Positions 23,883 to 28,255 of a DNA stretch of 64,000 nucleotides are shown in pieces. The position numbers and the translations under genes were made by a program. Within the stretch, counting starts at the first letter, position 1; the number at the start of each line of letters is the position of its first letter. This stretch comes from Candidatus Hadarchaeota archaeon (GTDB taxonomy: Archaea; CAYQAE01; CAYVLA01): positions 16,516 through 80,515 of the forward strand of contig CAZUNO010000012.1 in the NCBI GenBank assembly GCA_964621445.1, in the 5' to 3' direction. The notes below the pieces were generated by a model that was given only the letters and a program-made list of their open reading frames with translations, did not search any database and was not told the origin of the DNA.

Positions 23883-25524
23883 CAACCTCAATAGCCCGTT
23901 GCAGTATATCGCTGACCGCTTCATTACCAAGTGCACTTACCAGCGGGCCAAACCTCGGGCCAGATTTCTTTTTCAGCACCAACCGGTAGAGGATTCGGAA
24001 CATCCTTCCTGGTTTAACTCCATGATTCTTGGCTTCGCTAAAAATCGTGGACTGGATCTCGCCCGGTCCTGGGGAGGAGCGGATACAGGAATTTATCCTC
24101 TCTAGGGCTGAAATTTCATTCTCAGAGAGCTGGGAAACGAAATCGCGGTCCGGAACCTCGGCTAATGTGAGAGCCTGATCGGGGACATATGATTCCACCC
24201 AGCGAAGGCCGAACTGCAACCTCCTTCTTATGAACTCAACATCCTCACCGCTAAGTTCCTCACCGATTATACCCGATCTCTGAAGAGTTTCAAGTGCCTC
24301 CTGGATCTGGGTTTCCGGGTCGTATATCTGGGCAATTAATGAAGCGAAGGAGAAATCCACCATGGCAGGTCTCTTATCAGGGATATCGCCGAGTTGCGAA
24401 ATCTCATACAATCTGCTCATATGAGCTCTTTCTCGTTCATTTGAGGGAACCGTTATCCCGTAGTAGACATCGGCGTGGCGGTCATAATCGGAATAGAGCC
24501 TGGGTAGACCGCGCCAGGTAAAGCTTCTGGTCTTCATTAACTTCTTGTTATAGAGAAAACGGAGTAGTTCCGGGGGAGCAACCTGCAGCCACTGGGATGG
24601 ATAAACCACATTGCCAACTGATGCGCTCATCTTCTCTCCATCGATCATTAGATGCTCGTAGAAGAATGGCTCGGGCATGGGGTAATCGAGTATTCGTTCC
24701 ACGATCTCCCCGTTAACCCACCATGCGCTGGTTGGAACCTCGTACTCCTTTCCGCCACCTTCACAGGCCACGTTCCAGCGAGCCCATTCACTGGCCCATT
24801 CTCCCTTCCAAAGTAGCTTGCCCTCGTCACTAGTGGCCTCCGCCTCCCCGATATATCCACAGCCACGGGCCGTGGTCTTTTCGAAGTCGTAATCCCTGCA
24901 CTCGTATCTTACCTTCGTACCACGTAATTCAATTATTCGGGGGGTAATTATCTTTCCGCACTTGCTGCAGATCGGTTTCCAGGGGCTCCAGGTTTTAGAA
25001 AGTTCCGAATCCCGGTACTTACCCAGGATTTCCTTTACCTCGTCCACTTTTTGAAGGATACTCCTTATGTATGAGCTGAAAAAACCCTTCTTGTACTGCT
25101 CACGCATGGAGAAGATATCCATCTCGTTGGACACGAATTTGTGAATAACGTCGAGGTATTCTTCCTGATGGTGCTCCGCGTAGGATTGATGGCATCCCTG
25201 CGGGTCGGGAACATCGGTAACCGGTTTTCCAAGATAATCCTCATATTCCTTGGGAACCCCCCTTGGTATCTTTCTAAGAGGATCCATATCCTCAGCTACC
25301 CAGATCATCCTGGCATCTACCCCTGCATCCTCCAGAGCTGTAACCACGGAATCCGCCCGAATGGTATCGCTAAGGCGTCCTATGTGGAGCACCCCTGATA
25401 GAGAGGCTGAGGATTTAACCACATACAGGTCCCTCTTCTCGACTGGCTTGTCCAGGAAATGAAAGCTACTTCTTTGAATTATGTCTGCGGCCTTCTGATC
25501 GGCCCAGAAGAGTGATTCCTCCAT
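23875..25524 (-). CDS. lysS: class I lysine--tRNA ligase
   Basis: FWAD, SGVLHIG, DPLRKIP, GKLLWK.EW, KMSAS.GN, GPRFG. Confidence 0.95.
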   Translation of the reverse strand: MEESLFWADQKAADIIQRSSFHFLDKPVEKRDLYVVKSSASLSGVLHIGRLSDTIRADSVVTALEDAGVDARMIWVAEDMDPLRKIPRGVPKEYEDYLGKPVTDVPDPQGCHQSYAEHHQEEYLDVIHKFVSNEMDIFSMREQYKKGFFSSYIRSILQKVDEVKEILGKYRDSELSKTWSPWKPICSKCGKIITPRIIELRGTKVRYECRDYDFEKTTARGCGYIGEAEATSDEGKLLWKGEWASEWARWNVACEGGGKEYEVPTSAWWVNGEIVERILDYPMPEPFFYEHLMIDGEKMSASVGNVVYPSQWLQVAPPELLRFLYNKKLMKTRSFTWRGLPRLYSDYDRHADVYYGITVPSNERERAHMSRLYEISQLGDIPDKRPAMVDFSFASLIAQIYDPETQIQEALETLQRSGIIGEELSGEDVEFIRRRLQFGLRWVESYVPDQALTLAEVPDRDFVSQLSENEISALERINSCIRSSPGPGEIQSTIFSEAKNHGVKPGRMFRILYRLVLKKKSGPRFGPLVSALGNEAVSDILQRAIEVAR

Positions 25525-25558
25525 AAACACACCAAAAATACTAGTCGCGGGTCCAAGA

Positions 25559-25750
25559 TGCCGTTCGCCCCGGTTTTTACCGGTGGAGCGGGGTTCGAAC
25601 CCGCGACTTCCGTCTCAAATGAGACTCCGGATGTCCCAGTGACATGGCCGGTGAACCTATACTCGGTCTCCGTGCCCTAAGGTCTCCTATGAGTCCGGCG
25701 CGCTCTCCGGTCGAACCTTGAGGTTCGATAACCGGCTGCGCCATCCCGGC
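25559..25750 (-). tRNA. elongator tRNA-Met (CAT) with four predicted introns (20a/21, 37/38, ~45/46, 68/69)
   Basis: Exons 25750-25730, 25704-25688, 25632-25625, 25607-25585 and 25563-25559 join into a fully paired 74-nt cloverleaf GCCGGGA TG GCGC AGCCGGTTA GCGC G CCGGA CTCATAA TCCGG AGGTC GCGGG TTCGAAC CCCGC TCCCGGC A; BHB-like motifs at the junctions. Confidence 0.88.
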
Positions 25751-25782
25751 ATAGGTTCTCTGACGCGATGCCGGAAAAACGC

Positions 25783-25794
25783 ATATAAATATAT
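25783..25794. promoter_or_regulatory. TATA-box-like element between the divergent tRNA-Met and radical SAM genes
   Basis: ATATAAATATAT about 30 bp from both the tRNA 5' end and ATG 25824. Confidence 0.55.
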
Positions 25795-25823
25795 CTGCAT
25801 ATTCACCTTCCACGAGGTTCATT

Positions 25824-28180: not shown

Positions 28181-28255
28181 AGCGAGGTGGGGCAGCCAGG
28201 AGTGCCCGACGGGCTCATAACCCGTAGGTCAGTGGTTCAAATCCACTCCTCGCTA
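28181..28255 (+). tRNA. initiator tRNA-Met (CAT), intronless
   Basis: AGCGAGG/CCTCGCT acceptor with A1-U72, anticodon stem ACGGG/CCCGT with three G-C pairs, CTCATAA loop, GGTTCAAATCC T arm. Confidence 0.97.

Follow-up and report, generated by a model that had tools for sequence, protein, structure and literature searches.

The organization of a tRNA gene was analyzed in a window of 64,000 nucleotides, the whole stretch of DNA under study, to which all window coordinates refer. The source organism is an uncultured salt-mat archaeon whose phylum is represented by only five species genomes in the genome collection used. Its genome is designated G000 below; G001, G002 and G003 are other genomes of the same family, G004 belongs to the sister family and G011 to a distant archaeon. 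A tRNA-Met(CAT) gene of 192 nt lies on the minus strand at 25750-25559 and is interrupted by four intervening sequences, located in the D loop, at 37/38, in the variable loop and at 68/69. Exon 1 (25730-25750; this and all following parts of the locus are on the minus strand) carries the 5' strand of the acceptor stem, GCCGGGA, positions 8-9, the 5' strand of the D stem and most of the D loop. Intron 1 (25705-25729, 25 nt) interrupts the D loop at a motif of HBh' type, with four central pairs, an inner helix of 7 bp and no outer helix; six pairs of the inner helix show two-sided changes among the four family genomes. Exon 2 (25688-25704) completes the D arm and provides the 5' strand of the anticodon stem and the loop as far as position 37, with the anticodon CAT. 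It is followed by the canonical 37/38 intron (intron 2, 25633-25687, 55 nt), whose motif has four central pairs and uses the anticodon stem as a 5-bp outer helix, and by the 8-nt exon 3, ATCCGGAG (25625-25632), which contains position 38, the 3' strand of the anticodon stem and the start of the variable loop. Intron 3 (25608-25624, 17 nt) lies in the variable loop, at about 45/46. Exon 4 (25585-25607) finishes the variable loop and carries the T arm as well as TCC at acceptor positions 66-68, and is invariant in the four family genomes apart from position 60. Intron 4 (25564-25584, 21 nt) separates positions 68 and 69 at a strict bulge-helix-bulge (BHB) motif of the hBHBh' form. The last exon (25559-25563) has only 5 nt, CGGCA; it supplies acceptor positions 69-72 and the discriminator A73, its sequence is unchanged across the four family genomes, and the CCA is not encoded.

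The boundary of intron 3 is ambiguous. A strict motif with four central pairs and a 4-bp inner helix gives an alternative intron of 19 nt (25607-25625) and a variable loop of 3 bases; the register used above has three of four central pairs and leaves the usual variable loop of 5 bases, as in the outgroup elongator tRNA-Met genes, where this loop is 5 nt long and uninterrupted. ARAGORN accepts the spliced products of both registers.

A TATA-like promoter element, GATATATTTATATG, is found at 25782-25795, 32-45 nt upstream of the mature 5' end. It is identical in all five orthologous loci compared (G000, G001, G002, G003 and the metagenome contig L065), and its sequence and position suggest an archaeal TATA box. 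At the other end, a T run at 25534-25538, just upstream of the lysK start and at the same place in the five loci, is likely to be the transcription stop, that is, a putative terminator. The start of lysK, which encodes a class I lysyl-tRNA synthetase, follows about 10 nt past the T run (window 25524-25560, minus strand). This order is kept in four of four genomes, and across them lysK is without a conserved TATA-like box of its own; co-transcription of the tRNA gene and lysK by read-through is a possibility. An open reading frame for 81 amino acids (25577-25822, minus strand) wholly overlaps the tRNA gene and its promoter and is most likely not a gene.

The unspliced gene was found neither by ARAGORN nor by Rfam, whether at gathering thresholds or with E values up to 10. 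Removing 25729-25705, 25687-25633, 25624-25608 and 25584-25564 by script yields a 74-nt product, which forms a full cloverleaf and is recognized along its entire length as tRNA-Met(cat) by ARAGORN. The spliced molecule has a CAT anticodon and a G1-C72 pair instead of the A1-U72 pair of the initiator, and its T arm, variable-loop flanks and acceptor resemble those of the elongator tRNA-Met of G011 and G004. We take such general features to distinguish tRNA-Met from tRNA-Ile2 here. An initiator-like tRNA with A1-U72 is located 2.4 kb away, at window 28181-28255. ARAGORN run with its intron search on the whole genome gave 42 tRNAs, two of them with a CAT anticodon, one initiator-like and the other Ile2-like, and each of the four family genomes contains a single instance of the anticodon-arm pattern seen in the interrupted gene. 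The gene at 25750-25559 thus appears to be the only elongator tRNA-Met gene of an assembly which, being 96% complete, leaves room for a second one. Since it is apparently the sole gene of its kind, a functional, spliced product is very likely.

The structure around intron 4 was scored with a program which encodes the published BHB definition, as given in the methods of the preprint 10.64898/2026.10.13.758758. The earlier note on this DNA had read a strict helix-bulge-helix-bulge-helix motif from 25593-25559; its minus-strand letters match the sequence exactly, and the scorer bears out the motif, with cuts at 25585|25584 and 25564|25563. The central helix has four of four pairs, CGCT with GGCG including one G-U. 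The two bulges, CCA and AAC, have 3 nt each, are on opposite strands and contain the cut sites. The inner helix is composed of 5 bp (CCGGT with ACCGG) closed by an AAAA loop, and the outer helix has 2 bp in the source genome (CC with GG); the strict hBHBh' form requires 2 or more pairs in each of these flanking helices. The archaeal splicing endonuclease EndA cleaves 3' of the second base of each bulge, and in the source genome this rule correctly places, at strict motifs, eight of the nine introns listed at 37/38. Applied to intron 4, as had been proposed, it joins TCC to CGGCA, and seven of seven Watson-Crick pairs are formed with GCCGGGA. When the cuts are moved one base either way the outer helix is lost and the join is different.

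Among 200,000 shuffles of the 21 bases of intron 4, none kept the four central pairs together with an inner helix of at least 5 bp, and 25 kept them with an inner helix of at least 3 bp. Folded alone, the 35-nt BHB stretch is of unremarkable stability (z = -0.74; 45 of 200 shuffles fold as well). The signal of intron 4 therefore resides in its geometry and context, not in its energy. Two other readings of the hairpin were rejected: a terminator, since the hairpin is not followed by a T run, and read-through, since the resulting 3' strand fails to pair with the 5' strand.

The distribution of the 68/69 intron in related genomes was then considered, a comparison which the earlier note had proposed in the form of a search for tRNAs whose 3' end is displaced by a hairpin. 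The intron is present in four of four family genomes. The orthologous precursors of the three other genomes are 77-89% identical and all four introns are present in each. Across the four species the exons of the tRNA are invariant, and divergence is found in the leader, the trailer and the loops of the introns. At intron 4, neither the exon columns nor the central helix varies, and the loop is variable in both sequence and length (4, 4, 3 and 10 nt, with a T-A, T-G or C-G closing pair). G002 has a CCG bulge instead of CCA and an inner helix of 8 bp; in G001-G003 the outer helix is 3 bp long, against the 2 bp of G000. Of the 48 cells of the structure, 47 are paired, compared to 29-47% when the partners are slid. 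Covariation within the BHB motif of these four genomes, which are close kin, is not significant: one of 12 pairs shows a two-sided change, and 243 of 500 shuffles do as well.

Outside the family the position is uninterrupted. The elongator tRNA-Met of the sister family (G004) contains two other introns and an intact 3' strand, and that of the distant archaeon (G011) has the canonical intron only. Since both genes are without it, the 68/69 intron looks like a gain within the family, as far as these sequences tell. Of the contigs of four other DNA runs, those of three cover parts of the stretch and those of the fourth do not match it. They gave no joint and no intron-less allele; within intron 4 the strain variants they contain differ in the loop, and in one deleted base adjoining it. 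A pattern scan of metagenomes returned at least 116 stretches. Among the 80 listed, one (L065) comes from the same lineage and has the intron. The 66 gap-free matches listed were discarded: judged by sequence, they are mostly bacterial-type class II tRNA-Leu genes in which the T arm and 3' strand coincide by chance. The other gapped matches, among those listed, contain no BHB. A search for loci based on lysyl-tRNA synthetase returned only relatives at 49-61% identity, none of them with a detectable tRNA. Taken together, the comparative and contextual evidence supports well the claim of a BHB intron at 68/69 leaving a terminal exon of 5 nt.

The genome encodes the enzymes such an intron would need. 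A protein of 507 residues (C9:28248-29771, plus strand) gives a full-length alignment with the epsilon-type EndA of ARMAN-2 (4fz2, E 4.6e-74); its residues 125-507 align with residues 13-387 of 4fz2, and the motifs FRxY, HS and SVRK are conserved. We take the Tyr, His and Lys of these motifs to be the catalytic residues of EndA. The protein is thus predicted to be an epsilon-type EndA, with three units in a single chain; enzymes of this type are homodimers of broad substrate specificity. A second EndA of 373 residues (C2:82887-84008, minus strand) has two units, of which the catalytic one is closest to crenarchaeal alpha subunits. An RtcB ligase is also encoded (609 bits). Each of the three other family genomes also has the epsilon type; it was not found in the sister family, where only a short alpha-like homologue was seen.

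Positions 66-72 were searched for further BHB introns by a genome scan anchored on the T arm. The scan returned 13 raw matches from the genome and none from a shuffled copy. Two of these matches are credible, one of them being intron 4; the rest are for the most part ordinary tRNAs, with an intact 3' strand and a chance motif downstream, or other chance motifs. The second credible case is a tRNA-Asp(GTC) gene (C17:17190-17322, minus strand, locus L044), in which a BHB intron of 31 nt at 70/71 leaves a terminal exon of 3 nt, GCG. This gene also has a D-loop intron. The 70/71 intron is present in four of four family genomes, and its central helix has just three of four pairs in two of them.

More generally, a T-arm-anchored census of tRNA genes, which is incomplete (45 of 99 seeds gave full-length solutions, 25 were resolved with confidence, and genes with interrupted T arms are missed), indicates that 16 of the 25 resolved genes are interrupted, tRNA-Met being the most interrupted. 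Intron sites among the resolved genes are the D loop, 22/23, 29/30, 30/31, 34/35, 37/38, 43/44, the variable arm and the acceptor, and several motifs have only three of four central pairs. Low-scoring solutions that placed introns in the 5' strand of the acceptor stem were considered spurious and set aside. Rfam reports 37 tRNA matches in the genome and ARAGORN 42, so that some tRNA genes remain undetected.

To characterize the order in which the tRNA-Met precursor would be processed, we examined its predicted folds. The earlier note had reasoned that the acceptor stem cannot fully form until intron 4 is removed. This premise was too strong: G1-G4 are already paired with C69-C72 in the precursor's minimum free energy fold, and a drawing with all seven acceptor pairs is possible with the hairpin in place. 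The T arm is a different matter. The BHB motif pairs positions 63-66 with intron 4, and the T stem is therefore excluded at the same time. RNAalifold on the four tRNA-Met precursors recovers the hBHBh' motif and predicts in addition a 10-pair helix, in which a segment of the 3' trailer (25544-25556, minus strand) pairs with the end of the variable loop and the 5' strand of the T stem (25607-25595), including part of the T loop. This predicted helix prolongs the one which bears the BHB. In it 94.9% of the cells are paired; three pairs have changed, each on one side only, and no two-sided change is seen. The trailer segment CCGCG is invariant in four of four species amid neighboring bases that vary. 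Since lysK starts about 20 nt downstream of it, the trailer could be conserved for another reason.

The energies of the 3' domain depend strongly on the trailer. With 16 nt of trailer, a fold without the T arm wins by 15.7, 12.6, 10.3 and 10.6 kcal/mol in the four species; when the trailer is left off, the T-arm fold and the alternative one differ by 0-0.1 kcal/mol in all four. Among 22 resolved tRNA genes the preference for the fold without T arm is 15.7 kcal/mol for tRNA-Met, 8.3 for tRNA-Asp and at most 2.2 for the other 20, in a comparison which sets stretches of 65-75 nt against stretches of 44 nt. For tRNA-Asp, single-sequence folds of the four 3' domains contain a trailer/T-stem pairing; the RNAalifold consensus is without this helix and pairs the trailer with the 5' acceptor strand instead. 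For the tRNA-Met precursor as a whole, 12 pairs show two-sided changes against 3.9 +/- 1.6 in shuffles, a score inflated by the fact that the structure was derived from the same four sequences.

The 5' end shows a pattern of its own. A predicted helix joins the leader (25751-25760) to the middle part of intron 2 (25653-25662, minus strand), with three compensatory pairs among the four genomes, and acceptor bases 4-6 are predicted to pair beside this helix. These folds suggest that the precursor has each of its two ends engaged in an alternative helix.

The earlier proposal that splicing precedes end trimming gains computational support from the trailer/T-stem pairing predicted in four of four species; the order itself follows by inference from these models. 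In the scheme we favor, the precursor would be transcribed from the conserved TATA-like promoter to the T run. The 3' part of intron 4 would pair with nucleotides 63-66, forming the 4-bp central helix and displaying the splice sites in the 3-nt bulges. While intron 4 is present, the trailer would pair with the 5' strand of the T stem, which would free positions 61-66 for the BHB. The splicing endonuclease would cut at the two splice sites, each of which follows the second base of its bulge, and RtcB would join TCC to CGGCA, the trailer pairing keeping the tiny 3' exon tethered after cleavage. Splicing of intron 4 would come before RNase Z trimming and CCA addition, and probably before cleavage by RNase P; after ligation the T arm and acceptor stem would refold and the trailer would be released. 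Thus the trailer may help to present the BHB and to tether the micro-exon, with splicing placed before 3' trimming.

We regard it as very probable that 25584-25564 (minus strand) is a genuine BHB intron at 68/69 spliced by EndA and RtcB; the part of this explanation which places splicing first is the inferred one. A stronger version would see a dedicated architecture: the trailer unfolds the T arm, presents the BHB and clamps the exon of 3-5 nt, splicing is obligatorily first, and 68/69 and 70/71 are uncatalogued sites enabled by the clamp together with an epsilon-type endonuclease. We hold this version to be less likely than not.

A true BHB intron with no fixed processing order is the most serious competitor of the favored scheme, and we hold it, too, to be less likely than not. 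Trimming of the ends could come earlier than splicing or be independent of it, and the complementarity of trailer and T stem would here be incidental, for example constrained by lysK, whose start lies about 20 nt beyond the trailer helix. The core motif indeed needs no trailer, with its outer helix of 2-3 bp, central helix of 4 bp and inner helix of 5 bp; the equality of the two folds once the trailer is omitted, the lack of two-sided change in the trailer helix and the failure of RNAalifold to recover an equivalent helix on tRNA-Asp all agree with such a reading. It accounts less well for a CCGCG segment that stays invariant in all four species amid varying neighbors, for a predicted preference of 10.3-15.7 kcal/mol in every one of them, and for the restriction of this preference, among the 22 genes tested, to the two with introns in the 3' strand. 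Moreover, a 3' exon of 5 nt held by two or three pairs would presumably be easily lost after cleavage.

Doubts about the intron itself carry far less weight. A decaying tRNA pseudogene, with a hairpin that is never removed and a fortuitous BHB-like geometry, would explain why standard finders miss the gene and why covariation in the BHB is statistically weak, but we find it highly improbable: the exons are invariant in four species, at 77-89% identity, where intron loops, leader and trailer diverge, all four insertions are at BHB motifs and their removal gives a full cloverleaf, the promoter-like box and T run are conserved, another elongator tRNA-Met gene was not found in the genome, and the intron 4 motif was matched by none of 200,000 shuffles. 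Hardly more credible is a hairpin that stays in the mature tRNA as part of an enlarged acceptor arm, or that is taken out by nucleases of end processing, the five terminal bases being supplied in some other way: the seven acceptor pairs possible in principle around the hairpin and the pairing of positions 1-4 with 69-72 in the minimum free energy fold would allow it, but it leaves the conserved 3-4-3 bulge-helix-bulge with its stem-restoring cuts without a reason, the read-through 3' strand does not pair with GCCGGGA, and EndA and RtcB are both encoded.

Returning to the genuine BHB intron, its features were compared with those of known systems. Non-canonical BHB introns have been described in Thermoproteales at many positions, one of which is the acceptor-stem site 3/4 (Sugahara 2008, cited in PMC4090602). 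The introns of the present gene are like them in being defined by a BHB, in occurring several per gene, in their presumed removal by EndA and RtcB and in having one of their number inside the acceptor stem. Unlike the 3/4 site, those of tRNA-Met (68/69) and tRNA-Asp (70/71) are in the 3' strand and leave terminal exons of 5 nt and 3 nt; the endonucleases belong to the epsilon and two-unit types and not to the (alpha-beta)2 type. PMC12397907 counts "acceptor stem regions" among intron sites, and tRNAscan-SE 2.0 extends its candidates by 60 nt to accommodate introns near the 5' or 3' end (PMC8450103). Introns at 68/69 or 70/71 are not mentioned in what could be found of the literature searched; the main position catalogues lie outside that literature, and the two sites may already be listed there.

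Older reviews give a maximum of three introns per tRNA gene (PMC4033280, PMC4390854, PMC8450103). In Asgard genomes up to five intervening sequences per gene are reported, a few of them in the acceptor stem (preprint 10.64898/2026.10.13.758758). The four introns of the present gene are thus above the older maximum and, given the Asgard five, are not a record. The tRNA genes of Asgard archaea, as this preprint describes them, resemble the present set in that most are interrupted, non-canonical introns are numerous, annotation programs miss many of them and a few are in the acceptor stem; the present phylum, judging by its size of five species genomes, is a different one.

Split and circularly permuted tRNA genes offer another parallel. 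In those of Nanoarchaeum, Caldivirga, Thermofilum and Cyanidioschyzon, according to PMC3218864 and PMC4033280, the flanking leader or trailer helps to build the BHB, and splicing must precede the maturation of the acceptor-stem ends. Unlike them, the tRNA-Met precursor is a single colinear transcript with an intron spliced in cis, and the role of its trailer is a predicted one. As for the enzyme, the epsilon-2 EndA of ARMAN-2 (PDB 4fz2) is described in PMC3239211 and PMC3488258 as cutting relaxed BHB motifs at non-canonical positions. The 507-residue EndA predicted here differs from it by an N-terminal extension of about 120 residues and by its coexistence with a two-unit paralogue.

The 68/69 intron is thus of a known archaeal kind in an unusual placement, and the precursor architecture is possibly new. 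It extends BHB tRNA introns to five bases from the mature 3' end in tRNA-Met, and to three in tRNA-Asp. In both genes the folded BHB motif keeps the acceptor stem and T arm from reaching their final form. In archaea, the place of splicing among the steps carried out by RNase P, RNase Z and CCA addition is as a rule flexible and difficult to probe; these two genes make the order directly testable, and they suggest how a micro-exon may stay in place during splicing. A seemingly essential tRNA gene can be invisible to ARAGORN and Rfam, and a lineage rich in introns and bearing an epsilon-type EndA is added beyond Thermoproteales and Asgard archaea. One further locus of the sister family contains a CAT tRNA with an encoded CCA and an apparent insertion in the variable loop (G004, L032:1455-1600). 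Its 5' acceptor strand is non-contiguous: the pieces of the would-be GGGCCCG lie apart.
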